From positions 704,001-768,000 of the forward strand of contig CBFIAK010000001.1 in NCBI GenBank assembly GCA_965660445.1: a DNA stretch of 64,000 nucleotides, read 5' to 3'. Position numbers and translations under genes: made by a program. This DNA is from Patescibacteria group bacterium (GTDB lineage Bacteria > Patescibacteriota > Gracilibacteria > UBA4473). This document shows positions 1,307 to 43,338 of the stretch, piece by piece. Under the pieces are notes generated by a model. That model was not told where the DNA came from, ran no database searches, and saw only the letters and a list, made by a program, of their open reading frames with translations. Every line of letters begins with the position of its first letter. Position 1 is the stretch's first letter.

Positions 1307-1592
1307 ATACAACAAGAAAAAAAGTATTCAATTGCCGAAGAATTGTAAAAAAAAATATTTTTTCGTCAAAGAAAAACCTAAAAGAAAAAAAATATTGCCT
1401 AAAAACTAAAAAAAGAAAACAATACAAACAAAGACCAAAAGAACATTCATTGACTTTTGTTTTCTTTTGGTTTATTTATATACTATAGTTCTTTTACAGC
1501 AAGCGAATAAAAAGGTAGTAATGAGAAAATCAAAATGATTACTCTCGTTACTCCACAAAACGTTTTTTTATCAAAAATAAAGGAGTTCTCTC

Positions 1593-2459
1593 ATGAGCAA
1601 ATTAAAAGACGAATACGAAGCAGTGTATCATATAGATGATATTCTCGTAAACGACTGTAACACGGCACAATCAGTATTTCTAGATGATTATTCATCTGAA
1701 TTGCGAGAAGAAAATAGCGTTGATGGCATTATAATATTGCGAAAAAATGGAAAATGCATATTAGCTCCTGTTAATGTTATGCAAGATGGTTTATCCATGG
1801 ATGACCTATACGATGAATTGAAAAGAAGAGGGTATTATGAAATAACCCCCATTAATAAAAAAAGTTTGCAAGAACTTTTTAATATCGCCCAAAACATGGA
1901 AGACCTTATCAATGAAGATCCGACATTCTATGATTTTGATGAGAATGATGAGTTCTCATTAGAAGAATTTGAAGATCATGTAGGGGGGCTTATAAAAGAA
2001 GGAGTATATATCGATGATATATCTGATAAAAGCCGGCAAAAAAGAATTGGGACAGCAGATATTGCTTCACAAAACGATTTTATTCGATGTTATATTTCTA
2101 AAATTGAAAAATATAAAAATCGAACAGAATCTATCTCTGAGTTGTATTCTTATATAAAAGAATTACAAGGAGACCGGTTTGAAGAGGATATTTTCTCAAT
2201 CGCCTTGCATGCTTATTTTATGTTTCACTCTATTCCCAAAAGTGATGATGAAAATGAATGCATAGAAGTTGATAGTCATTATCTGCAATGGCAGTTGGAA
2301 TATCAACTGATAAATAGGTTTCAAATACAACACTATACAATTGCTCTGGAGTATATATTCAATCATATGAATATAGAACTCATTGATTCTTCGATTGATT
2401 TTGAGAAAAAGATAGAAGATATCTTAACAAAAAAAATCATAGGGAAAATAGCTCTATAA
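1593..2459 (+). CDS. Hypothetical acidic protein (orphan, SD-led)
   Basis: 288-aa ORF, AAGGAG at 1580-1585, terminator hairpin after; no recognised motif. Confidence 0.75.
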   Translation: MSKLKDEYEAVYHIDDILVNDCNTAQSVFLDDYSSELREENSVDGIIILRKNGKCILAPVNVMQDGLSMDDLYDELKRRGYYEITPINKKSLQELFNIAQNMEDLINEDPTFYDFDENDEFSLEEFEDHVGGLIKEGVYIDDISDKSRQKRIGTADIASQNDFIRCYISKIEKYKNRTESISELYSYIKELQGDRFEEDIFSIALHAYFMFHSIPKSDDENECIEVDSHYLQWQLEYQLINRFQIQHYTIALEYIFNHMNIELIDSSIDFEKKIEDILTKKIIGKIAL

Positions 2460-2475
2460 AAAAACAGATCTACAC

Positions 2476-2509
2476 GACCATTCTCTTTTTAGATGAATGG
2501 TCTTTTTTT
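2476..2509 (+). terminator. Intrinsic terminator
   Basis: gaccattc...gaatggtc stem followed by T7. Confidence 0.7.
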
Positions 2510-2545
2510 GTTTGAATTCTCCTCTATTTGTGGTATAATCATGAG

Positions 2546-3601
2546 ATGTCAAAAAAACAAAATATACTTTCGGTTGTATTCACAGTTCTTCTTTTTGGTG
2601 GGGGAATATCAGCACAATCTCTTTTTCAGTTTCGATATTTTGAAACACATGAAGCGTTTGAAAAACAATACGTAGAAACCATTCAGCAGTATCAACAAGC
2701 AGAAAAAGATTATAGCGATGCTTTTAATCGAATGACCGGAAGCTGTAACCAAAAACTACAAACTCGGTGTCAATACGTTCAGGATAAAGCTATGGACATG
2801 AATGAACTTGATCCAAATGGGTCTCTTTTTTGTAAACAAGTTGAATGTTATAATGCGTATGGATCATATCTTGAAAACATCCACAATCCATTCTCATTGA
2901 GTGGATGCCAACAACGAGATAAAGCATTAAGTTCATGCGATCAACAAAAAGATCATCGCCAAGATAATTTTATAAAACTTGGTATGCGAGAAGGATATAC
3001 CTATATTATACCTCCAAAAGCGCCATTCTATAAAATTCAACAGATGATCCAAGCTCAAAATATGGCATATGATGCTGGATTTTCAACCGAAGAAGCGAAA
3101 GAAATCGTTTATCAGCTCAATGTAGAGAATGGAACATGGAACCCAACTCATTTAGGAGACCCTTGGTGTCGAGCTCGAAACGGGAAAGAAGATTATTGTT
3201 TTAAACTCCAACAACGAGGTATTGGGGTTGAACGAGTGCTTCATTATTGTTCTTTTGGACTTGTGCAATACAACACCTGTATTCATCACAATGTAAAAGC
3301 AGAAGATTTTATCGCCAACCCTGAAAATAGAATCTGGATTGATTCACACTATCAAATGAAACGATTAATTGATTTCTTAGTCGATAAAAAAACAGAGTAT
3401 GGAAACTTCAAACAAGCACAAGTTCATTGGAATTTTCCAGTAGCAGCACAACAAGGAGCTTATAAATCAGTAGCCTATTACAACCGACTTTCAAACATGA
3501 AAGAGAAGTTTAATTCTCCTGAAGACGAGCTTGGTGCTATTGAAATCACCATTCCAGCACGAAATAATAATATCGGAGAAAGTGAAGACAAATCCTTATA
3601 A
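2546..3601 (+). CDS. Secreted Cys-rich protein with putative lysozyme-like/lytic transglycosylase C-terminal domain
   Basis: Signal peptide MSKKQNILSVVFTVLLFGGGISAQ; VENGTWNP and SFGLVQY resemble SLT motifs ES..NP and GLMQ; start moved to ATG 6 nt after TGgTATAAT. Confidence 0.55.
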   Translation: MSKKQNILSVVFTVLLFGGGISAQSLFQFRYFETHEAFEKQYVETIQQYQQAEKDYSDAFNRMTGSCNQKLQTRCQYVQDKAMDMNELDPNGSLFCKQVECYNAYGSYLENIHNPFSLSGCQQRDKALSSCDQQKDHRQDNFIKLGMREGYTYIIPPKAPFYKIQQMIQAQNMAYDAGFSTEEAKEIVYQLNVENGTWNPTHLGDPWCRARNGKEDYCFKLQQRGIGVERVLHYCSFGLVQYNTCIHHNVKAEDFIANPENRIWIDSHYQMKRLIDFLVDKKTEYGNFKQAQVHWNFPVAAQQGAYKSVAYYNRLSNMKEKFNSPEDELGAIEITIPARNNNIGESEDKSL

Positions 3602-3696
3602 AAAAATTGACAAAAGCATAAAAATATTATATAAATTTTCTGATCTTTGATAACAAAACGATAGTAAAAATTATTCCATTAAAAAAAGGAGTCTTT

Positions 3697-3930
3697 ATGC
3701 AAAATGCATACATAACGCATAGAAGTGCTATATTCTTAGCACAAAAACCCCACATAAAAAAAACAAACGAAGACTTTCGAACACTGGAAGATATCAATCA
3801 GTGCGAAAAAAAATGTCAAAACATACTCGGTCAAGAATTTGATTCAGAGATGTTCCACATGGCACTTTTTGAGCACATTGAAAATCCAAATGAAGTCTTT
3901 GACTTGAAAAATGGGGAAACTATTCACTAA
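3697..3930 (+). CDS. Small hypothetical protein (orphan, SD-led)
   Basis: TTGACA-17-TATAAA at 3607-3635, AAGGAG 3686-3691, terminator after. Confidence 0.7.
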   Translation: MQNAYITHRSAIFLAQKPHIKKTNEDFRTLEDINQCEKKCQNILGQEFDSEMFHMALFEHIENPNEVFDLKNGETIH

Positions 3931-3942
3931 AAAAGATCACTG

Positions 3943-3972
3943 AACCGACTGCGCAAACAGTCGGTTTTTTTT
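3943..3972 (+). terminator. Intrinsic terminator
   Basis: aaccgactg-cgcaaa-cagtcggtt plus T-run. Confidence 0.8.
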
Positions 3973-6031
3973 ACAAAAAAGACATCTGCGAATTCTGTTG
4001 AGTATTATCATTGACTCTTGTTTTCCCAAACAGGCTTAGTACATCTGATTCTTCTAATACGGGTATGGAAATCTCTTCTGCTTTTTTCTTTTTCGATCCT
4101 GCTTTGTCTCCAGCAAAAACAAAATCAACCTGCGAAGAAACTGCTGAAAGTACTTTTCCACCCATTTTTTGAATCTGTTGTTTTAGTTCATCTCGACTCA
4201 TACTTTGAAAGGTTCCAGTAAGAACTATTTTTTTACCAGAAAGTGGCGTTTGTTTTTCATCAGCAACAACAACCGATTCAAAACGAATCCCCACAGCCGA
4301 CAACTCTGAAAACAATATATGAGTTAGAGGATCATTAAAAAAAGAATACACATGTTGCGCTACGGTTTCCCCAATGCCATCGAGTGAAAGGATGTCTTCA
4401 ATGGAGAGCGTACTGACTTTTTCAGGAAGAAGTGCTAAATCCAAAACTCCAAAAGTATCAATAAAAAAATGAGCTAGTATTTCTGCTGTTTCTGATCCCA
4501 CATTGCGAATACCGAGAGCCGTCAATAATTGCCCCAAAGGAAATATTTTTCGAGACTCAAGAACATCCAATACGTTATACACTTTCTTATGCTTAAATCC
4601 CGGAAGAAGTGCTAAATCATGTTGATCAAGTTTCCAAAAATCAGCAAACCCCTGAATCAATTTTTTTTCGTATAAAGCGATAATTGTTTTTTCTCCTAAT
4701 CCTTCTAAATCCAATGTCTGCACAAAATACAAAAGTCGAGCCTTTCTTTGTGCCTCACAGTGTATGTTCTCACATCGATAAACTTTTTCAGAAGTAGACA
4801 GAACGCTTTTGCAGACTGGACAATGAGTTGGAATATCAATATTTGTTTCTTTTCCTGAGCGTAAATGAACAATCGGTTCAATAACTTCTGGAATAATATC
4901 ACCCGCTTTATGGACTAAAACAGTATCACCAATACGAATATCCTTTCTTAATACTTCATCCATAGTATGAAGTGTTGCTTTTTGCACCAAAGACCCCGAA
5001 ATAGAAACTGGTTTCAACACTGCAACGGGAGTAATAGCGCCTGTACGCCCTACTTGAAACTCTACATGAAGAAGCTCTGTATGTTTTTGCTCAGCAGGAA
5101 ATTTCCAAGCAACAGCATATTTAACTGTTTTTGCAGTCGAACCAAGACGCTCTCGAAAAGAAAAATCATGAACTTTTACCACAATTCCATCAATATCATA
5201 CTCAATATCATTTCGTTTTAATCCATCCGACCAAGAAAGACAAAAGTCAAGAACCGATTGAATATCAGAAAATACAAAAAACTTTTTTTCATATGGAATG
5301 GTCATCGAATCAAAAAAAGCAAATAGATCTGTTTGATTGTTTATATCTTGATCGGTATTCACTGTGTCATAGAAAAACATTCTCAAATGACGGTCATGAG
5401 CAACAGAAGGGTCAAGTTGTCGTACCGATCCAGCAGCTAAATTGCGTGCATTCGCAAATTTATTATCCACAGGAAGGTTTCTGTTTATATTCTCAAAATC
5501 TTGACGCGTAATAAAACACTCCCCCATAATTTCTAAAGAAAGAGGTAATGGAAGTTTAAGAGGTATATTTTCACAGGTTCGAATCGTATGAGTAACATCT
5601 TCGCCCTGAACGCCATCTCCACGAGTAAGGGCTTGAGTTAAAACACCGTTTTCATAACGCACAACAATATGAATACCATCAATCTTTAATTCGCAAGAAT
5701 ACTGAAGCTCATCAACCTTTAAAAATCTTTTTACACGCAAATCAAAATCGAGAAGTTCTTGAGCATCAAACACATCCGATAATGAATATCTTCTTTGTGT
5801 ATGAATCACTTTTGGTAGTTTCGAATCAAGCACAACTCCAACCCGTTGAGTAGGGGAGTCCTGTGTAATAAATTGAGGATAGTGTGTTTCAAGATCAATC
5901 AATTCTTTTTTTAATTGATCACGCACCGACTCTGGAAAAAGAGTTGTATTATCATTAAAATAAGCCGCATTCCATTTATTTATTTGCTGACGCAAAGTTT
6001 CTATTCGATTTTTCGCAGACATATCATCCAT
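3971..6031 (-). CDS. ligA: NAD-dependent DNA ligase
   Basis: ELKIDG adenylation motif, TRGDG, GRTGAITP, CPVC zinc finger, C-terminal BRCT; start trimmed to ATG 6031. Confidence 0.97.
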   Translation of the reverse strand: MDDMSAKNRIETLRQQINKWNAAYFNDNTTLFPESVRDQLKKELIDLETHYPQFITQDSPTQRVGVVLDSKLPKVIHTQRRYSLSDVFDAQELLDFDLRVKRFLKVDELQYSCELKIDGIHIVVRYENGVLTQALTRGDGVQGEDVTHTIRTCENIPLKLPLPLSLEIMGECFITRQDFENINRNLPVDNKFANARNLAAGSVRQLDPSVAHDRHLRMFFYDTVNTDQDINNQTDLFAFFDSMTIPYEKKFFVFSDIQSVLDFCLSWSDGLKRNDIEYDIDGIVVKVHDFSFRERLGSTAKTVKYAVAWKFPAEQKHTELLHVEFQVGRTGAITPVAVLKPVSISGSLVQKATLHTMDEVLRKDIRIGDTVLVHKAGDIIPEVIEPIVHLRSGKETNIDIPTHCPVCKSVLSTSEKVYRCENIHCEAQRKARLLYFVQTLDLEGLGEKTIIALYEKKLIQGFADFWKLDQHDLALLPGFKHKKVYNVLDVLESRKIFPLGQLLTALGIRNVGSETAEILAHFFIDTFGVLDLALLPEKVSTLSIEDILSLDGIGETVAQHVYSFFNDPLTHILFSELSAVGIRFESVVVADEKQTPLSGKKIVLTGTFQSMSRDELKQQIQKMGGKVLSAVSSQVDFVFAGDKAGSKKKKAEEISIPVLEESDVLSLFGKTRVNDNTQQNSQMSFL

Positions 6032-6115
6032 TGGCAAAAGTATATCAAAAACAAAAAAACCAGTCACATAAAAACTGGATTTCTTGTTCTTCTAAAAAGA
6101 AAAAATATTTGTTTA

Positions 6116-6340: not shown

Positions 6341-6371
6341 AATAATGAAAGGATTAAAAAAACAAGAAAGA

Positions 6372-6920: not shown

Positions 6921-6947
6921 GCTTTCTGGTCGGTTAAAAAATAAAGA

Positions 6948-11244: not shown

Positions 11245-11455
11245 AAAAAATAATCAAGAAATATATCTTCATTCTAAAGGGTACACAAAAACGAATCAAA
11301 TTTTTTGACAACAAAGAAAAAAGTGGGCATTATAGAGACATTGATATTTGAAAATTCAGAAATCACGCCTTTTCTTATTTCCTTGTTTTCATGAAAGAAA
11401 TACAAAGTAATAGAAAAGAGTGTTTTATTTTTTTTAAAAAAGAAAGGAGAAATGC

Positions 11456-11827
11456 ATGCAAAATGCTACCATAAAAGGGCGACTTAGACGCCAAAGCCCG
11501 ATCCAAAAGGATGATAAAGATGATAAAGAAGTCATTGAAGCTCAACAAATTCTCAAAAATGACATTGAAAGAGAAATAGTTGGAGAAATACGATTCCAGA
11601 AAAAAAGAGGAGTCGGAGGAGATGAAAGAATAATCATACCTAAAAAAAAGAAAACAAGAGTGTTTAAAAGATATTCTCGAGTGAATATACTCTGTGAAGA
11701 ATACAAGAAAATACTCTTAAAAAAATATAATCTAACTGATAGATACGCACTTATCCGCAAAGACAATAGTGCGTATTGGATCATTGCAATTCCCCCTCAC
11801 AATTTTTTACAAGAAACATATCAATAA
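11456..11827 (+). CDS. Hypothetical basic protein (orphan, SD-led)
   Basis: TTGACA 11305, AAGGAG 11444-11449, terminator 11841-11874. Confidence 0.7.
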   Translation: MQNATIKGRLRRQSPIQKDDKDDKEVIEAQQILKNDIEREIVGEIRFQKKRGVGGDERIIIPKKKKTRVFKRYSRVNILCEEYKKILLKKYNLTDRYALIRKDNSAYWIIAIPPHNFLQETYQ

Positions 11828-11840
11828 TTTTTTTAAACAT

Positions 11841-11874
11841 ACTCCGACAATAAGTGTATTGTCGGAGTTTTTTT
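11841..11874 (+). terminator. Intrinsic terminator
   Basis: 12-bp perfect stem actccgacaata/tattgtcggagt plus T-run. Confidence 0.85.
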
Positions 11875-14545: not shown

Positions 14546-14574
14546 TTGACAATGTCATGACATATACATATAAA
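14546..14574 (+). promoter_or_regulatory. sigma70 promoter with palindromic operator
   Basis: TTGACA-17-TATAAA; perfect palindrome ATGTCATGACAT at 14552-14563 in the spacer. Confidence 0.65.
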
Positions 14575-14580
14575 ACAAAC

Positions 14581-14847
14581 ATGTCACACATTCAAATTCG
14601 AATATCAGAAGAAGAAAAAGAGTATGCACAACAACTTTTCCGATCAATGGGCCTGAGTATGTCTGGGGCTATTAAGCTCTTTATTCGCAAATCAATACAA
14701 GATGATGCACTTCCTTTTGATGTATCAGCAAGATCAATTATCAAAAAGCCATCCTCAAAAAAAGAAAAAGAACCGAAACAACCCCAAAAACAACAGCCGA
14801 AACCATCGGCAAATCGGTTTTCAAATTTTGTAAAAAAAGAAATATAA
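14581..14847 (+). CDS. RelB/DinJ-family ribbon-helix-helix antitoxin
   Basis: IQIRISEEEKEYAQQLFRSMGLSMSGAIKLFIRKSIQDDALPFDV matches the RelB/DinJ pattern. Confidence 0.85.
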   Translation: MSHIQIRISEEEKEYAQQLFRSMGLSMSGAIKLFIRKSIQDDALPFDVSARSIIKKPSSKKEKEPKQPQKQQPKPSANRFSNFVKKEI

Positions 14848-14880
14848 AAAAAATAACACTGTGATAAATCACAGTGTTAT
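14846..14880 (-). terminator. Palindromic terminator between convergent genes
   Basis: ataacactgtgat-aa-atcacagtgttat with T-run on minus strand. Confidence 0.75.
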
Positions 14881-14884
14881 ATAT

Positions 14885-15310
14885 TTAATAATACAGCCAA
14901 CAAAAAGTATTTTCTTCATTCTGAGGTATTTTCAACTTGTAATGAAAATGACTGTACAGAAAAAGTAAATCACAGAGAATTGGCTCATATTCTTTCGTAA
15001 AGTTCCACCTTGATAGGGAAATCCGAACCTCATAAAGGTGCGGTGATCGCAGTGGAAAGTGTGCATCAAGCAAAGGAAGTAAATCAGTCGGTATCTCTCG
15101 AAACCAATGAAGAAATCGTGTATACATATCAATTCTTTTTTGAATAAGAGATACGAGAGATTGTTTATCAGCATAGAGAAGACTGTAGTGTTTTAGATCT
15201 TCTATTGCTGATGGAAGAGAAGATACAATACTTTCAGTGTGAAGGATTTCTTTTGATTGTAAAAGATCCTTCACATCTGAAGGTACCATTGTTAAACGAA
15301 TACTATTCAT
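14885..15310 (-). CDS. Hypothetical protein (orphan, SD-led)
   Basis: AGGAG before ATG 15310; second gene of a two-gene unit. Confidence 0.7.
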   Translation of the reverse strand: MNSIRLTMVPSDVKDLLQSKEILHTESIVSSLPSAIEDLKHYSLLYADKQSLVSLIQKRIDMYTRFLHWFREIPTDLLPLLDAHFPLRSPHLYEVRISLSRWNFTKEYEPILCDLLFLYSHFHYKLKIPQNEENTFCWLYY

Positions 15311-15323
15311 AAGTACTCCTGAT

Positions 15324-15776
15324 TTATGATAGATAGTAATTCTTACCATGTATATATGGTGTTAAAAAAACTTCAAACTGCTTTCCCACCGCCTTATACT
15401 GAGTGATAAGAGGAGGAAAATTTTTCCTGCTCATATGAGCATCAAGTAACCCTTTATTCATATGTGTTTTCTTGATGAAGATCCGAATTTTTAATGGATC
15501 TAGTTTTGGACACTCAATAGTCATTTCCGAGCGAATAACCGCTGGAATATGAGTAAGTGTATAGAGTAAATACTCATACTGATGCCATAACTGAAGCTGT
15601 TCATAAGCATTCACATCACAGGTTAAAGACAATGAATCTAGGGGTGTCCCTCGTTTTAAAATTTGTACTCTTTTTTGTAGAGAATGAATAATATTCTCAG
15701 AAAAAAATCCGGAATCGGATAAGATTGCCGAAGCCATTTTACGTCTTTTTTTAGGCGGAGAAATGGTAGTAAGCAT
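15324..15776 (-). CDS. Hypothetical protein (orphan, SD-led)
   Basis: AAGGAGG at 15783-15789; TATAAT at 15815-15820. Confidence 0.7.
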   Translation of the reverse strand: MLTTISPPKKRRKMASAILSDSGFFSENIIHSLQKRVQILKRGTPLDSLSLTCDVNAYEQLQLWHQYEYLLYTLTHIPAVIRSEMTIECPKLDPLKIRIFIKKTHMNKGLLDAHMSRKNFPPLITQYKAVGKQFEVFLTPYIHGKNYYLS

Positions 15777-15833
15777 GATATGCCTCCTTTAATGAATAAT
15801 GTAAAAGAACTCACATTATAAATAGAACAAAAT

Positions 15834-16286
15834 CTAAACCGTGTCCAATTTTTCATTTACTATTTGATCGGCAATTTTATTTTTTTCTCGAGGAACATGT
15901 GTAAAAACAAGAGACGTGAAATTATTTTTTAGATTTTGTATCTCTTGAGCAATAGGTTTTATGTTCTGATTTTTTATTTTCCAACGACCACTCATTTGTT
16001 CTACAATAAGTTTTGAATCGAGAAAAACAGAAAGATGAGTTATGCCATGATTGAGTGCCATAGCAAGTCCATCACGAACAGCACAATACTCAGCAAAGTT
16101 ATTTGTTTGTATACCATAATACCAACCAGATCGTGCTTGTTCTGTTTTTTGATCATCATACAGAACCGCTCCACCGGCACACCGACCAGGATTTCCACGT
16201 GATCCACCATCACAAAACAAAACACCATGTTTATCAACACAATCACCTTTTTGTGATACAGAAAGAGAATCAAAAAGTGTTATCAT
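15834..16286 (-). CDS. rnhA: Ribonuclease HI family protein
   Basis: CDGGSRGNPG, TNNFAEY, DSKLIVEQMSG.W, HVPREKNKIAD. Confidence 0.92.
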   Translation of the reverse strand: MITLFDSLSVSQKGDCVDKHGVLFCDGGSRGNPGRCAGGAVLYDDQKTEQARSGWYYGIQTNNFAEYCAVRDGLAMALNHGITHLSVFLDSKLIVEQMSGRWKIKNQNIKPIAQEIQNLKNNFTSLVFTHVPREKNKIADQIVNEKLDTV

Positions 16287-20779: not shown

Positions 20780-21157
20780 TTAAATATCAAGTAACTTCCT
20801 TTTTGCCTCATGTTTTATATCAACTATTTCTTTCTCAAGAAAATGTGTCAGTACGATTCGAATACTAATAATAATAACTAGTGCGCCAAGACTTTTCACA
20901 AGGTCCTGCCAAGGAGTGGTCACTGAGTTTAAGAGAAATGTATCAATAATATCTTTTCCAATAAAAAAATCGAGCCCTAAAATCATATGAGTGTTTAAAA
21001 TAAGTCTTAGTTTTCCAAAATACATTGTGCTATGGCGCAGACAGTAAAGCCATATGGTCTGCAAAACCCCTAAAAGAATAATAACGACTCCAATGGCACC
21101 AATAAGGTACGATAGAAACCCTAAAATATCAGAAAGCAATACTACAAAATCTGTCAT
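20780..21157 (-). CDS. DUF1622-like membrane protein
   Basis: ILGLDFFIGKDIIDT...IRIVLTHFLEKEI. Confidence 0.8.
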   Translation of the reverse strand: MTDFVVLLSDILGFLSYLIGAIGVVIILLGVLQTIWLYCLRHSTMYFGKLRLILNTHMILGLDFFIGKDIIDTFLLNSVTTPWQDLVKSLGALVIIISIRIVLTHFLEKEIVDIKHEAKRKLLDI

Positions 21158-21228
21158 CGTGTTATTATAACACAAAAAAGACATTATTCAAAGTATATAC
21201 TTACAAAAAGAGAACCCAATTTCGTATA

Positions 21229-26047: not shown

Positions 26048-26320
26048 CTATGGAATAAAGAATAGTATTCCTTTACTATTATCATCCATAATACGCTTTT
26101 GAAACGTATCATATTGTATGACAATACGAGTATCAATAAGCATCAATTTCGCTTCTATCCCATTATAAAGGACTCTCATAGGTTTTTCTTTTAAATTTTC
26201 CTTGAGTTGCTCTTGGCTTATTTTTATGGCTCGTTCTTTATTATCCTCTTTAATCCCTAAAATACGAATCTCTTGATTCCTTTTAGGGGCAAAAAAAATC
26301 AACGATCGTTCTTGATTCAT
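26048..26320 (-). CDS. Hypothetical protein (orphan, SD-led)
   Basis: TAAGGAG at 26326-26332, TATAAT at 26403-26408, hairpin at convergent end 26002-26035. Confidence 0.7.
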   Translation of the reverse strand: MNQERSLIFFAPKRNQEIRILGIKEDNKERAIKISQEQLKENLKEKPMRVLYNGIEAKLMLIDTRIVIQYDTFQKRIMDDNSKGILFFIP

Positions 26321-26438
26321 AGAAGCTCCTTATGTTATGTAGTTTTTGAGAAAACAGTTTTCTATTTCTCCCAAAACCCTCGATATACTGAAAAAGAACA
26401 AAATTATATAGAATACATCATAAATTCCGAAAATACAT

Positions 26439-30647: not shown

Positions 30648-32654
30648 ATGACAACAACTTCACACACAAAAACAGCTCCAAATCCTTTTCACAAAAGACC
30701 AATACGGAATAAAACACAAGAAAAAAGACACACACAAAGACGACTTATATTCGGAGCCCTTATTATAGGAGTTCTTGGTTCTTTCCAAAACCTTATACAT
30801 GAAGATTTTTTGGAACTCTGGCGTGCGAGTGTCTTAGATTACGCTCCTATTGAGTTTACAGGAACTGTATCTCCTATTGAAAAAGTACCAAACTGGACAG
30901 AGCTTTCTGATGCAGAACGAACAATGAACTATGATCAGTTAAAATCTCGATCAAAGCTCATCCCTATTCCTCGTTACAATATAAGTATTATTCAAAAAGG
31001 AAAAAATTATAACGGTGGAAGTGATATGCAACGAAATACGTTCATTACTTATTCTGTCCCCTACATGGGAAACTATATGCTTGACGGAACTCAAAACAGT
31101 GGATCACATCCCGGAGTTGATATAAAAACACCTATAGGCACACCCGTTCGAAGTATTGCAAATGGGATTGTTCATAAAGCTGAGTTTAGTCAATATGGAT
31201 CAGGAAACTATGTGACCATTGCTCATCCGGGAATGCCAGATCCAGAAAACCCAAGTCAAACAACAACTCTCTTTTCTTCGTATGCACACTTATCTTCTTT
31301 CAGTGTGAAAGAGGGTGATCGAGTAACAAAAGGTGATATAATTGGAAAAACAGGAAACAGTGGAATGACAACCGCTCCACATTTGCATTTTCAAATCGAT
31401 CGAGAAGATGCTCCATTCTATCCATATTGGCCTTTTACCTGGAATGATTTACAAAAAGCGGGACTGGCTTCTTTCTTTGATGGAGTTAAAAACGGAGTAG
31501 GAGCACGAAATGCAATCAAATACACGTACAATCCCATAGATGTACTTCATGCATTTGAAAACTACCAAGACAATAATTTAGTAGTTTCAGCAGATCCTGA
31601 TTTTACACCAGAAAAACCCCAAAAACCGAAAAATCAAACAAACAAAGAAACTCCAGCAGAAGAGACCAAGCCAGTAGAAAAAACTGAACCTACAAAAGAA
31701 ACCGTTCAAATAACGGATTCGAATAACACTGAAAACACACAGACTGTACAAAAAGAAGTTAAGGAAGAAAAACCAAATACTCCAATCATAGAACAACAAA
31801 CAACACAGCGAGATAGACCTATAAAAATGAGAATTGATGAAAACGCGATTGTATTTGAAGACATACAAACATACATCCCCAATACACCACAACGAATAAA
31901 ACTGCTTATTAAAGAAGAGGATTTAATTGTCTCAAGCGAGCCAATTCAAGTTACAACAACACTGAGAGGTTTAAATGATGTAACACCAAAAACACTTACT
32001 CAAAAAGATTTTCGAGACGGTATTGCTGAAATAGAATTTCACCCACATAGCCAAAGTGATTTTCGATTCGTGGTACAAGGACCTTTTGGAGAAATAAAAT
32101 CAAACAGTATTCGTGCACAAATATTTAAAGACATTCCTCCGAGTCATCAATTTGCGAATGCTATTGAAAACTTAAAACAACAAAGAGTAATTGATGGATA
32201 CGAAGATGGAACATTTCGTCCACAAGGAACATTAAATCGTGCCGAGGCTGTGAAAATACTTATCAATGGAAATAATGTATCCCTTGCAAAAATGGAAGGA
32301 AGTCGGTTTTCAGATGTTCCCACTCAAGCTTGGTTTACAGATTTTGTAAACACTGCTTCTGAAAGAGGTATTATCAAAGGATACCCAGATGGCTTATTCC
32401 ATCCAGCAAAAGAAATATCACGAGCCGAGTTTTTAAAAGTAGCAATTCTTACACGAGGAATAAGCCCATCTACACCAACATCTGATCCCTATAGAGATGT
32501 AGGGAAAGATGAATGGTTTGCTCCTTATTTTGAGTTCAGCAAAACCCATTCTCTTCTACTTATAAAAGGAGATATTGCAGACCCCGCATTTCCTATTACC
32601 CGAGGAGAAGCAGCTTATATCATTGATAAACTCTCAAAACTAAACATTTTATAA
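30648..32654 (+). CDS. M23 peptidase with three C-terminal SLH domains
   Basis: HPGVD, YAHL, PHLHF; GYEDGTFRP..LNRAE and GYPDGLFHP..ISRAE. Confidence 0.92.
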   Translation: MTTTSHTKTAPNPFHKRPIRNKTQEKRHTQRRLIFGALIIGVLGSFQNLIHEDFLELWRASVLDYAPIEFTGTVSPIEKVPNWTELSDAERTMNYDQLKSRSKLIPIPRYNISIIQKGKNYNGGSDMQRNTFITYSVPYMGNYMLDGTQNSGSHPGVDIKTPIGTPVRSIANGIVHKAEFSQYGSGNYVTIAHPGMPDPENPSQTTTLFSSYAHLSSFSVKEGDRVTKGDIIGKTGNSGMTTAPHLHFQIDREDAPFYPYWPFTWNDLQKAGLASFFDGVKNGVGARNAIKYTYNPIDVLHAFENYQDNNLVVSADPDFTPEKPQKPKNQTNKETPAEETKPVEKTEPTKETVQITDSNNTENTQTVQKEVKEEKPNTPIIEQQTTQRDRPIKMRIDENAIVFEDIQTYIPNTPQRIKLLIKEEDLIVSSEPIQVTTTLRGLNDVTPKTLTQKDFRDGIAEIEFHPHSQSDFRFVVQGPFGEIKSNSIRAQIFKDIPPSHQFANAIENLKQQRVIDGYEDGTFRPQGTLNRAEAVKILINGNNVSLAKMEGSRFSDVPTQAWFTDFVNTASERGIIKGYPDGLFHPAKEISRAEFLKVAILTRGISPSTPTSDPYRDVGKDEWFAPYFEFSKTHSLLLIKGDIADPAFPITRGEAAYIIDKLSKLNIL

Positions 32655-34968: not shown

Positions 34969-34980
34969 TTATTTATTTTC

Positions 34981-36960: not shown

Positions 36961-37204
36961 GAATTTTATTGACAAACATACAAATGAGTGATAAAAAGTA
37001 AAAGCATATATATATACTTTTACTTTTGTTCTCTTTCACACTCATAGTACAGTGAATATTTATAATTAATTATTTAAAACGTATATATATTGCACTCTTG
37101 AGAGGTTTTGTTCGTTATTTATTACTCCAAAACGATATTTAACACAAAACCTCTCTTCTTTTTATTGTTCTTTTTTATCAATCCAAAAAAGCGAGGAGGA
37201 TTAA

Positions 37205-37345
37205 ATGGCAGAAAAACAAAAAACACCAAAAAATTTTTATTTTTGGGCAAGTATTATATTTGGTGCTTACGTATTTCTCATGATAATATCTATTCTGTTT
37301 TCTGGAATATTTGATATTCCAGAAGTTTTGACAAGATTTTTTTAG
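37205..37345 (+). CDS. 46-aa single-TM small protein (below ORF-track cutoff, SD-led)
   Basis: GAGGAGG 37193-37199; MAEKQKTPKNFYFWASIIFGAYVFLMIISILFSGIFDIPEVLTRFF*; terminator follows. Confidence 0.7.
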   Translation: MAEKQKTPKNFYFWASIIFGAYVFLMIISILFSGIFDIPEVLTRFF

Positions 37346-37353
37346 AACAATAT

Positions 37354-37387
37354 ATCACTTCATAGAAATATGAAGTGATTTTTTTTT
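37354..37387 (+). terminator. Intrinsic terminator
   Basis: atcacttcata-gaaa-tatgaagtgat plus T8. Confidence 0.85.
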
Positions 37388-37450: not shown

Positions 37451-37527
<77 letters not shown>

Positions 37528-37683: not shown

Positions 37684-38058
<375 letters not shown>

Positions 38059-38133
38059 TAAATAATAAAAGAGAATAAAATTTAAAACATAATTTTATTT
38101 TTTGGAATATGGAATTTATTTATAATAGAAAAG

Positions 38134-38553
38134 ATGAAAATTTATTTTGCTGGTTCCATTCGTGCAGGGCGTGAAGACGCCCCATTATATCAATTCCTGA
38201 TTCATCATATGTCTCAGAACCACACCGTGCTTACGGAACACATTGGGGATATATCTCTGGGAAATATGGGAGAATCAATAAAAAGAGATATTGATATTTA
38301 CAACCGAGATGTTTCATGGATAGAAGAATCTGACGTTATTGTAGCAGAAGTGAGCACTCCCTCTTTAGGTGTTGGATACGAAATTGGAATAAGTGAGAAA
38401 CTCAAAAAACCAGTTTTGTGTCTATTTCGTACACAAAACGAAGGAAAAAAACTTTCAGCCATGATACAAGGAAACCAATATATAAAAGTTGAACAATATA
38501 AGACCAAAGAAGAAGCAATACAGGTTATTGATCTCTTTTTAAACAGTTTATAG
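38134..38553 (+). CDS. Nucleoside 2-deoxyribosyltransferase / DNPH1(Rcl)-like N-glycosidase
   Basis: IYFAGSIRAGR, VLTEH, IYNRD, PSLGVGYE, LSAMI.G. Confidence 0.9.
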   Translation: MKIYFAGSIRAGREDAPLYQFLIHHMSQNHTVLTEHIGDISLGNMGESIKRDIDIYNRDVSWIEESDVIVAEVSTPSLGVGYEIGISEKLKKPVLCLFRTQNEGKKLSAMIQGNQYIKVEQYKTKEEAIQVIDLFLNSL

Positions 38554-38562
38554 AATACTTTC

Positions 38563-39072
38563 ATGTTTAGAAAAGGAAGCATCATTGCCTACCCAACCGA
38601 TACGAGTTTTGGACTTGGTGTTCGTGCTGACGACTCACAAACACTTGAGCGATTATACATTCTTAAAAAACGACCAATTCAAAAATATATATCACTTATG
38701 GTTCGTGACTGGGAAATGCTTGAAAAATTCGCTTTTATCCCAAAAACACTTTCTAAAGATTTATTCTTTAATACTCCTTACACGGCTCTTTTAAAACCAA
38801 AACCAATACTCCCCTCTTCTCCGTTTTGGGATTCTGAAAAAGTAGGGTTTCGTATATGCACTATTGAGGAAGTCGCTCGTTATATAACCTACCCTATAAC
38901 GGCTACTTCAGCGAATATATCAGGAGAGACGTCTTTGTTTTCAGAAAAAGATATACACACTTTTTTTGGAGATAAAATAGAAGTTTTATCAACACATCTG
39001 CATACACTTACTCCCCTTCCCCCTTCACAGATATGGGATCACACCGTTGATCCACTTCATCGGATTCGTTAA
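38563..39072 (+). CDS. tsaC: L-threonylcarbamoyladenylate synthase (TsaC/YrdC)
   Basis: YPTDT.FGL, K.RP, TATSANISG. Confidence 0.88.
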   Translation: MFRKGSIIAYPTDTSFGLGVRADDSQTLERLYILKKRPIQKYISLMVRDWEMLEKFAFIPKTLSKDLFFNTPYTALLKPKPILPSSPFWDSEKVGFRICTIEEVARYITYPITATSANISGETSLFSEKDIHTFFGDKIEVLSTHLHTLTPLPPSQIWDHTVDPLHRIR

Positions 39073-39136
39073 AAAAAATTGCATTTTGAACACAAAAAAA
39101 ATAGAATATCAAACGTAAAATTATCTATTAGACTTT

Positions 39137-40027
39137 ATGAATTTTGCTGAATTTCTTGCCCCCTTTATCCGAAGAAAAAACCAGTTTCTTATTAGTTTTT
39201 TTCTTGTGTTTGGGTTTTGCATGAGTGTATTTTTTATGCTTCCTCAAACAGAACGAACAACACTTTATTTTTCACTCAAACCACTGACCACCAATAGTGA
39301 TTCTTATGTACTCTCAAATGGTATAGAAGAAGGAAGTAAAGTAGCAGAAACTATTGCTGGATGGGCAAAGAATCCTGGATTTCGACAAGATATTTTAAAA
39401 GAAGCGAATCTTGATATTCCAAAATTCAAACGAAAACTTTCAGCACAACGTCAAAACAGACTCAATGTGTTTTGGACTCTGAAGCTGAGCGGAAAAGAGA
39501 CGCAGTATTCAGACGAAATCACAGAAGCATTAACAACGGTTCTGGATAGAAACATGGCTGAGTTTAACGATAACAATGCGTTCCCATTTGGGTATTCTGA
39601 ACCAAGTTTGTTTCAAGAAAAACGACCTATTCCACTTTCTTTACAAATTATTATCAGTCTTTCTATTGCTTTTATGGGAAGTTTGTTTGGGTTCTTTATT
39701 ATTGCAAGCATACAAGAACGACTTTTATTCACGAGTCAAATACGAGACTTGTTCCCAAAAAGTCCAATATTAAACATAAAAACAGAAATTGGATCACATG
39801 ATGAAGTTTTGCTGAAATATTTCTTATCAACGTTTCCAAACCCTCAATTACTTGGTGGGTTTAAAGAAGCTGAAAAGTTTTTTGATTTACAAACACTTCA
39901 AACACTCCAAAGAGAATCTGATACCCCTGTTATTTTAGTGCGATTATGGGACACAAAACGAGAAGACTTAGAAAACTTTAAAGCATTATTTGATGATAAT
40001 GTTGCTTTTATTCTTTTTGAACGATAA
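39137..40027 (+). CDS. Wzz/polysaccharide co-polymerase-like membrane protein
   Basis: Two TMs flanking an extracytoplasmic domain, Pro before TM2; weak similarity by eye. Confidence 0.5.
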   Translation: MNFAEFLAPFIRRKNQFLISFFLVFGFCMSVFFMLPQTERTTLYFSLKPLTTNSDSYVLSNGIEEGSKVAETIAGWAKNPGFRQDILKEANLDIPKFKRKLSAQRQNRLNVFWTLKLSGKETQYSDEITEALTTVLDRNMAEFNDNNAFPFGYSEPSLFQEKRPIPLSLQIIISLSIAFMGSLFGFFIIASIQERLLFTSQIRDLFPKSPILNIKTEIGSHDEVLLKYFLSTFPNPQLLGGFKEAEKFFDLQTLQTLQRESDTPVILVRLWDTKREDLENFKALFDDNVAFILFER

Positions 40028-40029
40028 AA

Positions 40030-40494
40030 ATGCCACGAAAAAAAACACCTCAGTTTGGTGATATTATTTTCTTTCACCCTCGAAGTTTAAAAAGTAAGAT
40101 CATTACGCATTTTGATGATGGAGACTGGTCTCATGTAGGGCTTGTGCTTGATATATATGAATCAAGAATCCTTTTTATAGAAAGTCATTGGGACGGAGTA
40201 CGAATACAGCTACTTGATGAAACATCACAAAATTTTACTATCGTTCCCGCACCCGTAAAAATAAAAAAATCAAAACAGGAGTTACTTCAATTTGTAGGAA
40301 AAAAATATGATTACAAACACTTGGTATCTATGGGGCTTCATTTAGGAAGTCGAAAACGAATAAAACTCCGATCCACCAACGAAGATCAATTAATCTGTAG
40401 TGAACTGGTAAACTGGGTCTATGATTACACATTGAGTCCAAAAGGAGAAGCTACTCCAAACTCTATTTATCGTTTTCTTACACAAAAGACCTAA
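40030..40494 (+). CDS. Permuted papain-like (YiiX/NlpC-P60) amidase
   Basis: GDIIF, WSHVG, GKKYD, ICSELV. Confidence 0.85.
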   Translation: MPRKKTPQFGDIIFFHPRSLKSKIITHFDDGDWSHVGLVLDIYESRILFIESHWDGVRIQLLDETSQNFTIVPAPVKIKKSKQELLQFVGKKYDYKHLVSMGLHLGSRKRIKLRSTNEDQLICSELVNWVYDYTLSPKGEATPNSIYRFLTQKT

Positions 40495-40503
40495 ACTTAT
40501 TTC

Positions 40504-41349
40504 ATGACCAATTTTTTCAAGGACAGACAACTTTTAATTGCGAGTATGCATGAAAAAGAACGAGTTCTTCAACCATTATGTGAAACTCATTTAGGGGTTT
40601 CTTGTCGTGTTGTAGAAGGATTTAATACTGATGTTTTTGGAAGTTTTACAGGCATACCTCCACGAAAGGAATCACCAAAGAAAACACTGAAGCAAAAAAT
40701 AGAAACGGCTCTTGATTTGTTTGGGTATGATCTTGGTATTGGCAGTGAAGGAAGTTTTTATCCGTCCCCCGCGACTCCTTTTGCCACACAAAATACAGAG
40801 ACGATTATGATTATTGATAGAAAAAATAATATCAGTATTGATGAATCGTTTACAACACTGAAAACAAACGCGAACCAAAAAAAAGCATACTCTTTGGAAG
40901 AAGCTTTTGAGTTTGCTCGGCAAATCGGATTTCCTGACCATGGAATACACATACGTCCGAAAAAAAATGCTTCAAAAATATATCATATTGTTGATGAAGA
41001 AATGCTCAAAGAAACAGTGCAACACATTCTGTCTCACTGGTTTCAGTCTTCTTTTTGGATTGAAACAGATATGAGAGCACATAAAAACCCAACTCGCATG
41101 GTTGCTATTGAAGAAGCGATGAAATCACTCCTTAAAAAACTTTCTTATCATTGTCCTGAATGTAGAACTCCGGGATTTGGCGTACAAGAAAAAAAACAAG
41201 GGCTTCCTTGCTCATGGTGTGGAAAAGAAACTGTTGAGACACGGTTTGAAATCTCTCAATGTGTCAAATGCGATCATACAAAAATATATGACAAAACGAA
41301 TGATGGTTTCTATGCAGACCCCGCACAGTGTGAACACTGTAATCCTTAA
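40504..41349 (+). CDS. DUF6671-like protein with C-terminal Cys clusters
   Basis: MHEKE, TDVFGSF, SEGSF, ETDMRAHKNPTRM, CPEC, CEHCNP. Confidence 0.8.
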   Translation: MTNFFKDRQLLIASMHEKERVLQPLCETHLGVSCRVVEGFNTDVFGSFTGIPPRKESPKKTLKQKIETALDLFGYDLGIGSEGSFYPSPATPFATQNTETIMIIDRKNNISIDESFTTLKTNANQKKAYSLEEAFEFARQIGFPDHGIHIRPKKNASKIYHIVDEEMLKETVQHILSHWFQSSFWIETDMRAHKNPTRMVAIEEAMKSLLKKLSYHCPECRTPGFGVQEKKQGLPCSWCGKETVETRFEISQCVKCDHTKIYDKTNDGFYADPAQCEHCNP

Positions 41350-41603
41350 GACTTTTTGTTGTAGATATATCGCTGTACGGCAAAACAAGTCCAAACAAAC
41401 CCAGAAAGAAATGTTACGACCCCAGAGAGCAGTAATCCTGATGTCCACAAGGCGACAGATATAGTAAATAAACAAAGTGCATACGGAACAGATGTCGAAA
41501 ACCCAATAGGTCCTGTTTTCGTTCGAAATCCATTATATACTTGAGGAAGCAAAGACATACTCAAGATTATATTACAAACCGTAATCACAATATCTTGCCA
41601 CAT
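41346..41603 (-). CDS. PQ-loop/SemiSWEET-like small membrane protein
   Basis: LLPQVY motif, three TMs. Confidence 0.7.
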   Translation of the reverse strand: MWQDIVITVCNIILSMSLLPQVYNGFRTKTGPIGFSTSVPYALCLFTISVALWTSGLLLSGVVTFLSGFVWTCFAVQRYIYNKKS

Positions 41604-41778
41604 AAAATTTTCAGAAAAAAAGTGAATCAAGTATACCAAAAACGGTTCTCTAAAAAAACAGAGTTTATATGGAAATACACTTGCCGTTTTTATATTTCAT
41701 GTTATTATGGTAATAGAAAGAAAAGTTCTTTTAAAACTCGGATAATAAAAAATATTTCAAACAAATTAAGGAGCCTAT

Positions 41779-43338
41779 ATGGATACCCATATACGTTTAC
41801 AGTTCTTAGGTGGTGTGTCAGATGGATCAAATCTTACAGGATCAGCAACAGTACTCACAATACGAAGAAAAAAACAAATAACTCGTATTTTGATTGATGC
41901 TGGTTTGGTTCAATGTGATATGCGTCATTTTTTTGAGCGCAACAACCAAATTTTAAATCATATTGATCCAAAAACAATTGATCATGTGGTATTAACCCAT
42001 GGACATACTGATCATATTGGCAGACTTCCACATTTAGTACGACATGGATTTGGAAGTCGATCTCGTTCATCTCGTATCTTCTGCACCCCGCAAACGGCAA
42101 GTTTACTTGAAGTTATGTTTGAAGACAGTGCAAAGATTCAATCAGAGATGGTTAATATTTTGCGAAAAATCAGTAATTCAAACACAAAGCTTCTCAAAAA
42201 CAGAGACCGATCTCAGTGTTATTTAGGGTCGTATGATCGTAAAAAACAAAAGATCAAACACAATACAAAAAGAGGGGTAGAACCTCTTTTTAGCACAGAA
42301 GATATTCCGAAAACATTAGAAATGGTGAAAGGAGAAGGATGTGCTTACAATGAGTGGATAAAAATATCGAAATATATTTTCGTAAAATTTTATCCAGCAG
42401 GACACGTTTTGGGAAGTGCTGTTTGTGTTTTTCGAATTGAAAGTGAATTTGATACAAAATACATTGGATTTAGTGGAGACTTAGGAAGAAAAGATGGAAT
42501 AATTCTTCCTCCTCCTGAAAACATAAAAGAACCTCTTGATTTTCTGTGTATTGAATCCACTTATGGAAACAAAAGTCACCCAGAGAGAGATTCTGAAATT
42601 CAGAAACTCTTACAGGTTGTCAAAACAGCACAAGAAAAGAAAGAGAAAATACTTATTCCTTCTTTTGCATTAGAACGAGCACAAGAAATTATATACTTGT
42701 TATCGTATTACATACAAGAAGGAAAAATTGATCCAATAAACATATATTTAGATTCCCCCATGGCACAAAAAATCACTGATATTTTTGCTCATGCGTGGAA
42801 CAAAAAAATGTTTCTCGATCAAGACCGATTAGAATTCAATCCTTTTGATAGAGAAAATAATCCATATTTTCATATCATAAGCGATTGGGAAGAATCAAGA
42901 ACATTCATACACACAGAAAAAGGACCATACATTGTTATTGCTGGATCTGGTATGTGTGATCATGGACGCATTCGTTCACACTTAAAACACAACCTTGAAT
43001 CAAATAAGGCTCATATTTGTCTAATCGGCTACATGGGAGATAAAACTCTTGGTAGACGACTCAAAGACAAATGGCCTGTGATTAAGATGAATGGACAAGA
43101 AATAAAAGTAAATGCTCATATTCATAGCTTCGAAAGCTTTTCTGCTCACGCAGATAAAGATTTTCTTCTTGAATATATTATTGCATCTACATGTGATGAA
43201 AAAACTCCGAAAATATTCATCAATCATGGAGAAAGAGAAGGAGCAGAAGAACTTAAAAAACAGATACTTCGATTCTTTGATTTTCATTATGATGATATAA
43301 CGATTCCTTCTTTAAATGAAGAATTCATTTTAGCTTAG
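41779..43338 (+). CDS. MBL-fold beta-CASP ribonuclease (SD-led)
   Basis: THGHTDHIG, AGHVLGS, SGDLG, ESTYG, SGMC..GRI, FSAHAD, HGE; TAAGGAG 41767-41773. Confidence 0.92.
   Translation: MDTHIRLQFLGGVSDGSNLTGSATVLTIRRKKQITRILIDAGLVQCDMRHFFERNNQILNHIDPKTIDHVVLTHGHTDHIGRLPHLVRHGFGSRSRSSRIFCTPQTASLLEVMFEDSAKIQSEMVNILRKISNSNTKLLKNRDRSQCYLGSYDRKKQKIKHNTKRGVEPLFSTEDIPKTLEMVKGEGCAYNEWIKISKYIFVKFYPAGHVLGSAVCVFRIESEFDTKYIGFSGDLGRKDGIILPPPENIKEPLDFLCIESTYGNKSHPERDSEIQKLLQVVKTAQEKKEKILIPSFALERAQEIIYLLSYYIQEGKIDPINIYLDSPMAQKITDIFAHAWNKKMFLDQDRLEFNPFDRENNPYFHIISDWEESRTFIHTEKGPYIVIAGSGMCDHGRIRSHLKHNLESNKAHICLIGYMGDKTLGRRLKDKWPVIKMNGQEIKVNAHIHSFESFSAHADKDFLLEYIIASTCDEKTPKIFINHGEREGAEELKKQILRFFDFHYDDITIPSLNEEFILA

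Follow-up and report, generated by a model that had tools for sequence, protein, structure and literature searches.

Why do scattered and unrelated genes of a tiny marine bacterium share both a conserved motif near their predicted transcription start and a strong Shine-Dalgarno (SD) site, in a genome where most genes have no SD? The question was raised by a 64-kb stretch of that genome (positions 704001-768000 of contig C1 of genome G000; the genome measures 991 kb, with 36% GC, in 5 contigs), which we call the window and whose positions are used as coordinates unless a contig is named. The initial annotation of the window had noticed dispersed units in which a sigma70-like promoter, a motif resembling boxA, an SD, an open reading frame (ORF) and a terminator follow one another, and it had proposed that Nus factors act through the motif on a regulon of lineage-specific genes. 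We found that the association between motif and SD is real and is larger than that annotation had seen. As far as sequence can tell, the balance tips towards the motif being a NusB/S10 boxA that marks transcripts with long untranslated 5' ends.

Genes were predicted with a home-made codon-score caller (839 genes, with small ORFs under-called and starts approximate). The link between motif and SD was then evaluated in the 465 genes with an upstream spacer of at least 60 nucleotides (nt), and the first start codon of each ORF was taken, so that SD status was independent of start choice. The sense-strand core motif and the SD occurred together in 22 genes, the motif alone in 17, the SD alone in 8, and neither in 418. 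The core motif was thus present in 22 of 30 SD genes versus 17 of 435 SD-less genes (odds ratio 68, p 8.5e-21), so the outcome that the initial annotation had named as fatal to its reading, a motif equally common before SD-less genes, was not observed. On the antisense strand, the same 465 genes gave no such link (odds ratio 1.4, p 0.47). An 11-nt matrix at 12 bits or more recovered 19 of the 30 SD genes and 1 of the 435 SD-less genes; it was trained on SD-linked seeds, which makes its sensitivity circular and leaves its specificity unaffected. Moreover, 37 intergenic sites matched the motif with 13 bits or more, and for 25 of them a 5-mer SD, then a start codon with an ORF of 30 amino acids (aa) or longer, came within the next 170 nt. 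The same held for 446 of 5000 random intergenic positions and, among intragenic matches, for 1 of 21 in sense and 0 of 43 in antisense orientation. The 17 genes with a motif and no SD were mostly preceded by T-runs lacking the A-C-A tail; as real exceptions there remained rpsJ, a tRNA leader and two cases that were unclear. Genome-wide there are about 35-45 transcription units with the motif, 7 of them in the window, and the motif lies 23-134 nt before the start codon, in the predicted 5' untranslated region (UTR) within tens of nt of the SD, the arrangement of the suhB type. In the window itself, the pattern GTTCTTTTWMA was matched 7 times (0.84 +/- 0.95 in 100 shuffles, none of which reached 7); four matches belong to intergenic units and three lie antisense within coding sequence.

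Several simple sources of the motif were considered and rejected. Chance or base composition was rejected by the shuffles, the random intergenic positions, the antisense control and the matrix test. Shared ancestry of the units was rejected as well, with only 2 paralogous pairs among 42 linked proteins and with promoter spacers that differ. A reading of the motif as a second promoter's -35 box (TTGACA/TTTACA inside it) was not accepted, there being by eye no -10 box at 17 nt, nor was a reading as a CsrA site (A-GGA), CsrA not being found in a genome scored 100% complete.

The units of the window, and one Nus factor gene, are as follows.

1450-1484 (+): promoter of unit 1, TTGACT 1450-1455, 17 nt, TATTTA 1473-1478; alternative -10 box TATACT 1479-1484
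1488-1498 (+): boxA-like motif of unit 1, GTTCTTTTACA, 9 nt past TATTTA and 3 nt past TATACT; 16.9 bits
1580-2459 (+): gene of unit 1, AAGGAG 1580-1585 and a 288-aa ORFan 1593-2459
3607-3652 (+): promoter and motif of unit 3607-3967, TTGACA 3607-3612, 17 nt, TATAAA 3630-3635, 6 nt, GATCTTTGATA 3642-3652
3686-3967 (+): gene of the same unit, AAGGAG 3686-3691, 77-aa ORF 3697-3930 and terminator 3942-3967; a complete unit
11305-11353 (+): promoter and motif of variant unit 11305-11868, TTGACA-17-CATTAT and GATATTTGAAA 11343-11353, with A at core position 4
11444-11868 (+): gene of the variant unit, AAGGAG 11444-11449, 123-aa ORFan 11456-11827 and terminator 11841-11868
15847-15800 (-): promoter and motif of unit 14853-15847, TGGACA 15847-15842, 17 nt, TATTTA 15824-15819, and GTTCTTTTACA 15810-15800
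15789-14853 (-): two genes of the same unit, AAGGAGG 15789-15783, ORFs 15776-15324 and 15310-14885 without Pfam families, and terminator 14880-14853
26408-26389 (-): promoter and motif of unit 26048-26408, TATAAT 26408-26403, 3 nt, GTTCTTTTTCA 26399-26389
26331-26048 (-): gene of the same unit, AAGGAG 26331-26326 and a 90-aa ORFan 26320-26048
37028-37177 (+): motifs of unit 37028-37379, the degenerate GTTCTCTTTCACA 37028-37040 with a one-base insertion, and GTTCTTTTTTA 37167-37177
37193-37379 (+): gene of the same unit, GAGGAGG 37193-37199, 46-aa ORF 37205-37345 and terminator 37354-37379
41681-41735 (+): promoter and motif of unit 41681-43380, TTGCCG-16-TATTAT 41681-41708 and GTTCTTTTAAA 41725-41735
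41768-43380 (+): gene of the same unit, AAGGAG 41768-41773, a 519-aa metallo-beta-lactamase/beta-CASP RNase 41779-43338 and terminator 43349-43380
43384-44137 (+): motif-less SD-type unit, AAGGAG, TTG start, 220-aa ORFan 43442-44104 and terminator 44112-44137
47080-47628 (-): nusG, with NusG N-terminal and KOW domains, without SD and without motif

All four copies that the initial annotation had called clear were found in place, at 1488-1498 and 41725-41735 on the forward strand and at 15800-15810 and 26389-26399 on the reverse strand. Its weaker copies fared unevenly: that at 3642 (+) is good, that at 11343 is a position-4 variant, and that at 37028 is degenerate, with one inserted base. The copy at 37167-37177, ahead of GAGGAGG and the 46-aa ORF, had been overlooked. 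The upstream pattern T(T/G)GAC(T/A)-17-TATTTA, ascribed in common to unit 1 and the unit whose first ORF starts at 15776, was recovered at 1450-1478 and 15847-15819. The further claim that each unit has its own terminator held for 6 of the 8 SD-type units of the window (the 7 motif-bearing ones and the motif-less 43442-44104), while the scan found none after 1593-2459 and none after 26048-26320. Terminator-like sites numbered 27 versus 11.6 +/- 3.5 in shuffles, and also 22 versus 10.4 +/- 3.8. In the 64-kb window no leader matched a riboswitch or leader model of Rfam, and only 3 tRNAs reached the gathering score. The two-gene unit 15776-14885 is flanked by a RelB-type antitoxin gene (14557-14847) and an RNase H/RVT_3 gene (15834-16286).

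What, then, is the motif? The consensus of 25 promoter-proximal seed copies reads G-T(a,c)-T-C-T-T-T-[G/T/C]-A-[C/A]-A. Positions 7-10 (numbered from 0) lay outside the seed selection and yet are informative: position 7 is never A, and the tail has A in 18 of 25 copies at position 8, C or A in 22 of 25 at position 9, and A in 22 of 25 at position 10. As RNA, the motif reads GUUCUUUUACA or GUUCUUUGACA, and the copy in the 16S leader reads GCUCUUUUUCA. BoxA is the NusB-NusE(S10) site in the leaders of rRNA operons, such as Escherichia coli rrn, and also of lambda nut. The likeness that the initial annotation had noted was borne out by the rRNA leaders of this genome, which hold the same sequence: in the 16S leader TTGACA-17-TACAAT is followed after about 36 nt by GCTCTTTTTCA, and in the 23S leader TTGACA-17-TAGAAT is followed after about 45 nt by GTTCTTTGATAAC. 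As in the known systems, a core G-Y-U-C-U-U-U with an A-rich or ACA part stands in both rRNA leaders, downstream of sigma70 promoters. Six 16S leaders of the family keep G[C/T]TCTTTT[T/C]CATTTCG[A/G]ACGCA while their flanks diverge, and those of G016 and G010 carry GTTCTTTTTCA, identical over 11 nt to window 26389-26399. The rpsJ operon begins with TTGACA-16-TACCCT-6-GCTCTTTTAGAG; motif copies stand 15-17 nt upstream of tmRNA and of a tRNA-Met/Leu pair, and one further tRNA leader has one. Because the same sequence occurs in the 16S and 23S leaders, in six family leaders, and before rpsJ, tmRNA and some tRNAs, we identify the motif with the boxA of this lineage. The rRNA genes themselves are single and unlinked (16S at C1:142344-143829, 23S at C1:270317-273238, 128 kb apart), each with its own TTGACA-17 promoter, and their leaders share TGGCTTTTGAT right behind the -10 box.

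The seed consensus agrees with GYTCTTTAANA, the boxA search consensus given in PMC5725501, including the A-C-A part that was not used in picking seeds. NusB-NusE is described as reading 8 nt of BoxA base-specifically (PMC3177189), a length equal to the invariant 7-8 nt of the motif. The genome encodes NusB, S10 (rpsJ), NusA and NusG with a KOW domain. Rho (Rho_RNA_bind) and SuhB (Inositol_P), each sought with one Pfam model, were not found in this genome scored 100% complete; of the genes that the initial annotation proposed to look for, nusB and rpsJ were thus present and rho and suhB were not. Because Rho and SuhB were not found, classical anti-Rho antitermination is an unlikely role for the motif. 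Two differences from rrn boxA have to be kept in view: a few dozen mRNAs of this genome carry the element as well, mostly at the very 5' end, and the Rho and SuhB of the rrn complex were not found.

The position of the motif relative to promoters bears on whether it acts as RNA or as DNA. Sigma70-type promoters precede it, and in many units its G, 6-9 nt beyond the -10 box, coincides with the predicted start. Of the 28 SD-linked copies scoring 12 bits or more, 22 had a promoter of at least 8.5 out of 12. In 12 of these the motif G came 3-7 nt after the -10 box (exactly 7 in 8 cases); in 4 it came after 13-16 nt, and in 6 after 36-57 nt. When TATTTA, which has the proper 17-nt spacing from the -35 box, is taken as the -10 box of the copies at 1488 and 15810, the distances are 9 and 8 nt. 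From these predicted promoters, the motif would usually begin at about +1, with other positions tolerated. The initial annotation had itself raised the alternative of an operator or promoter element, and a DNA signal at the start site could be a repressor or activator operator, or else an initially transcribed sequence tuning the escape from one class of promoters. The overlap with the predicted +1 stands for many units, namely the 12 of 22 at 3-7 nt, and the promoters are otherwise ordinary for sigma70. But 10 of the 22 copies lie 13-57 nt from the -10 box, both rRNA copies lie about 36-45 nt downstream of it, and in a relative, G005, all five leaders of the form motif-AAGGAG-ATG have no adjacent -10 box. 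The consensus also has no visible symmetry, being neither a palindrome nor a repeat, the motif stands on one strand only relative to the gene, and its sequence equals a known RNA element. Since the distance to the -10 box is variable and the G005 copies lack that box, an RNA element fits better than a promoter element. Weakened by the strand specificity and the 3-57 nt range, a DNA signal is in our view an unlikely explanation.

The SD on these genes is unusual against its genomic background. AAGGAG precedes 30 of 839 first starts (5 in a control interval), and most genes have no SD. Genome-wide, -10-like hexamers peak 3-8 nt before starts (112 at 5-10 nt versus 49 at 60-65 nt). Among 175 genes with a strong predicted promoter, the distance from the -10 box to the start was at most 12 nt in 42, 13-39 nt in 79 and longer in 54, and an SD was present in 0 of 42, 1 of 79 and 11 of 54, respectively. 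In the window, a TATAAT-like box stands 6-9 nt before the ATG without an SD at 38134, 29226, 20780-21184 (-), 44535-45170 (-), 3971-6031 (-) and 61122; based on such boxes, many core genes probably have leaderless mRNAs. The rest of the genome, as modelled from predicted promoters, appears to be largely leaderless, short-leadered or SD-less.

Moreover, the ribosome itself has changed, a point that the initial annotation overlooked. The 3' tail of 16S rRNA (C1:143800-143840) is GGAUCAUCGCCUUU, where the Rfam consensus has GGAUCACCUCCUUU, and the anti-SD core is UCGCC, not CCUCC. Tails of the family have CCGCC or UCGCC in 9 of 9 readable cases, whereas other families of the class have CCUCC in 6 of 8. 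A hairpin partner (AAGGC/GAGGC/ATGGC) a few nt downstream in the 16S precursor covaries with the tail, which indicates that UCGCC is no sequencing error. AAGGAGG pairs at -3.7 kcal/mol with its own tail versus -10.1 with a canonical tail, and AAGGAG-type sites at about -4 to -5 versus -7 to -10, so the canonical complementarity of SD and anti-SD is not provided by the UCGCC tail. Pairing with the own tail, through AAAGG, nevertheless has a median of -5.1 for linked SDs versus -1.7 for other genes, and the adapted form AAGGCG was found upstream of 0 of 839 starts. With a mutated anti-SD, the "strong SD" of these units is itself anomalous, being only a moderate match to its own ribosome. Minority use of the SD is also known in Bacteroidetes, with rpsU as an example. 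As there, an SD-poor genome has a small gene set with a strong SD; in the account of PMC7797042, however, the anti-SD is intact and masked, while that of the present genome is mutated and its SD genes have a 5'-terminal motif in common. Loss of CCUCC is listed for Ca. Peribacter riflensis, SR1 and others (class iv of PMC10783764). The present genome resembles that class in its 16S rRNA without CCUCC and its mostly SD-less genes, but its minority class of AAGGAG genes and their link to boxA do not appear in the passage of PMC10783764 that describes class iv.

The reading towards which these data lean is that boxA marks a leadered minority of transcripts. This minority would comprise 16S, 23S, tmRNA, some tRNAs, the rpsJ operon and about 35-45 mRNAs, with boxA at or near the 5' end, and the mRNAs would encode accessory, largely ORFan and often secreted or membrane proteins. 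NusB-S10 would bind the nascent boxA upon its exit from RNA polymerase and, via NusG and NusA, would convert the polymerase into an rrn-type modified elongation complex before any ribosome follows. On rRNA, tmRNA, tRNA and leadered mRNAs the polymerase would run ribosome-free, whereas the default mRNA would be engaged by ribosomes at or near its 5' end. Leadered mRNAs would then require an internal ribosome-loading signal, AAGGAG, and we propose that boxA and SD co-occur for this reason. A Nus loop, or pairing between the U-tract of boxA and AAGGA, may in addition gate the start of translation, as in E. coli suhB and lambda N. Transcription of the motif, its binding by NusB/E and the direction of the effect are all inferred here. 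Of the initial interpretation, the boxA identity and the ORFan link survive in this scheme, the nusB that it called for is present, and classical anti-Rho antitermination is an unlikely form of the effect.

A close known case is suhB, whose translation is repressed by a boxA in the 5' UTR close to the SD (Baniulyte et al. 2017, PMC5725501). The 5'-UTR boxA a short distance upstream of an SD-led gene is alike, and so is the copy in the leader of rpsJ (NusE), which that study reports for several genera. In contrast, it speaks of "only a few regulatory targets" per species, where about 35-45 occur here in 1 Mb; the targets here are mostly ORFans rather than translation genes, and its Rho step has no counterpart here.

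A number of observations weigh against this scheme. The same source gives 0-7 candidate mRNA boxA sites per gamma-proteobacterial genome (PMC5725501), next to which a few dozen would be unprecedented. The 8th letter of the motif is never A in the mRNA copies (0 of 25), whereas the gamma-proteobacterial consensus has A. With neither Rho nor SuhB found, boxA has nothing to act against in its best-known function, which is to block Rho, and the complex of five factors is not complete. The motif-less SD unit at 43384-44137 speaks against a strict rule of motif and SD, as do other SD units that lack the motif or have only a variant with one mismatch, at core position 4. Such position-4 variants stand at 11343 and in the C1:304029 leader. 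A -10-like hexamer comes as close as 1-4 nt to the motif in 3-4 units, and if this nearest hexamer is used, part of the motif is untranscribed; the point is softened by two such units having the alternative TATTTA with 17-nt spacing, 8-9 nt away. The argument from leader length is built on predicted promoters. Finally, Nus binding alone does not predict so near-exclusive a link to AAGGAG, with an SD in 19 of 20 genes at 12 bits or more in the matrix trained on SD-linked seeds.

It is this last point that another explanation would account for directly. The motif could be a cis-acting, Nus-independent RNA element whose U-rich 5' end (UUCUUU) pairs with the AAAGGA of the SD, 5'-AAAGGA-3' being complementary to 3'-UUUCUU-5' with one G-U pair included; the helix might mask the SD and control translation, or protect the 5' terminus against 5'-end-dependent RNases. 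Leader elements of the FourU and ROSE type are known to mask the SD, and the U-tract here is likewise able to pair with the AGGA of the SD. Near-obligate co-occurrence of motif and SD would follow at once, and the predicted probability of pairing between them averaged 0.38 versus 0.18 when the first 11 nt were shuffled (n=28, Wilcoxon p 0.006), exceeding 0.5 in 11 of 28 leaders. But the predicted pairing is weak, often -2 to -6 kcal/mol over a long range and below 0.25 in 16 of 28 leaders, and the perfect complement AAAGAAC is not the conserved form. The conserved A-C-A tail lies outside the pairing. Moreover, unlike the FourU and ROSE elements, the U-tract is part of an 11-nt conserved motif that also stands on stable RNAs, where there is no SD (16S and 23S leaders, tmRNA, tRNA). 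We judge this explanation about as improbable as that of a DNA signal.

The genes behind the motif raise the question of origin. Among 39 SD-linked proteins scanned (32 motif-linked and 7 with a degenerate or no motif), only 5 passed the curated cut-off of a Pfam family (NhaA, beta-CASP RNase, Por_Secre_tail, DUF192 and S26), 5 had sub-threshold matches and 29 had none, whereas 46 of 55 other window proteins have a Pfam family at E <= 1e-5. The description of the linked genes as orphans was therefore correct for most of them. The 288-aa protein of 1593-2459 has no Pfam family and no homologue in 42 family genomes; in a set of 5.8 billion proteins only itself was found at comparable length, and no related locus was present in the metagenome contigs searched. 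Of the 42 family genomes, 3 have NhaA. The beta-CASP gene 41779-43338 is an extra paralogue, 37% identical, of a family-wide gene at C1:338795-340168, and no locus related to it was found in the genome contigs searched; of these two beta-CASP/metallo-beta-lactamase RNase genes, it is the window copy that carries the boxA-SD leader, and the family-wide one lies outside the window. Homologues of NhaA and of the beta-CASP protein in other genera have neither motif nor SD upstream. GC of the linked genes is 33.8% versus 37.1%, with equal GC3, and a hydrophobic N-terminus is present in 14 of 30 linked versus 211 of 809 other proteins. At C1:487957-488777, two tandem ORFan units have an identical 24-nt leader start, GTTCTTTGAATGTTCGGTATTTAA, behind different promoters.

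The distribution of the module was investigated in 201 genomes of the class with the pattern GTTCTTT-N15-45-AAGGAG-N4-9-ATG, the reversed pattern serving as control. G000 had 13 matches and G005, of another genus of the family, had 5 (control 0 in both); four genomes had 3 each, and the rest had 0-2, near control counts. The five matches of G005 precede real ORFs of 68-311 aa without Pfam families, while most single matches elsewhere precede ORFs of 2-24 aa and are therefore attributed to chance. In other families certain leaders are kept from one genome to another, as before an M23/SLH protein: G089, G099 and G200, of another family of the class, have a gene of this architecture with a conserved GTTCTTTGACA...AAGGAG leader. 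In the window, the protein of 30648-32654, with Peptidase_M23 and S-layer-homology domains, has a short leader without an SD. In 400-kb samples, G013 had copies proximal to the transcription start with a weak SD link (3-4 genes, p 0.02), and G016 and G020 had none. G000 has no genus mate among the compared genomes, and its ClpP gave matches of at most 64% identity. With 13 matches in G000, 5 in G005 and few elsewhere, the module thus occurs in few copies across the class, with an expansion in G000.

Such patchy genes might also have come from outside, as horizontally acquired or mobile cassettes with a generic promoter, boxA, SD and terminator, the motif being that of the source. ORFans and patchily distributed genes (NhaA in 3 of 42 genomes, the extra beta-CASP paralogue, 1593-2459 without a homologue) and the lower GC of 33.8% would fit, as would the SDs, whose median pairing energy is more favourable with a canonical CCUCC tail (-8.4 kcal/mol) than with the tail of the host (-5.1). 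But the motif equals the rrn boxA of the host, down to GTTCTTTTTCA, GC3 does not differ, the units are single and dispersed over the chromosome with unrelated spacers and proteins, and in G005, which belongs to another genus of the family, the module precedes other ORFans. We know of no donor with a cassette layout of this kind. Acquisition does not exclude the boxA reading; as an explanation of the motif it is less probable still than the two above. Repeated sequences are also present in the genome. A dispersed repeat family follows the 16S gene (C1:144000-144500) and recurs in many spacers, and intergenic words (GGAGACCGGTCTCC; GATTCCAGATTC / GATTCTAGATTC; CACAAGG...) occur up to about 70 times. 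An identical stretch of at least 65 nt, ending ...ACCTTTTTTCGTTCTTTTTTGGTGGTCAAA, has at least 4 copies (C1:212880, C1:794087, C1:801300 and C4:8510); one of them lies at the end of contig C4. The stretch is probably the margin of an element, repeated or mobile, at which the assembly breaks.

Returning to boxA on leadered transcripts, the reading can be carried further, though only tentatively. The two parts of the leader, boxA at +1 and a canonical AAGGAG, may form a code that reserves a channel of expression for the ORFan proteome, which is lineage-specific and largely secreted, with NusB/S10 as its global regulator. The few dozen mRNAs would then be coupled to rRNA synthesis through competition for NusB/S10, which might also open the helix of boxA and SD and so license translation, in a bacterium that has lost the canonical anti-SD and would otherwise translate leaderless mRNAs. 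At its boldest, and with very low probability, this reading would have the cassettes carry universal bacterial signals (sigma70 promoter, boxA, canonical SD, intrinsic terminator) in order to be read by canonical anti-SD ribosomes, outside this cell.

BoxA and the Nus factors are textbook machinery of rRNA synthesis, and to our knowledge regulation in the candidate phyla radiation is almost unexplored. Our searches of the literature found no description of a boxA-tagged class of mRNAs in Patescibacteria or in that radiation. Regulation of mRNAs by Nus factors and boxA is known for just a handful of genes per genome. If the reading is true, the Nus factors, acting on a few dozen mRNAs of a 1-Mb genome, would be a major expression switch in a bacterium of the candidate phyla radiation. 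One 11-nt tag would give a handle on the ORFan proteins that are likeliest to mediate interactions with other cells. The persistence of a canonical SD on exactly these genes, in a family with a mutated 16S anti-SD, is a puzzle, and it makes the choice of start sites in SD-scarce bacteria directly testable.

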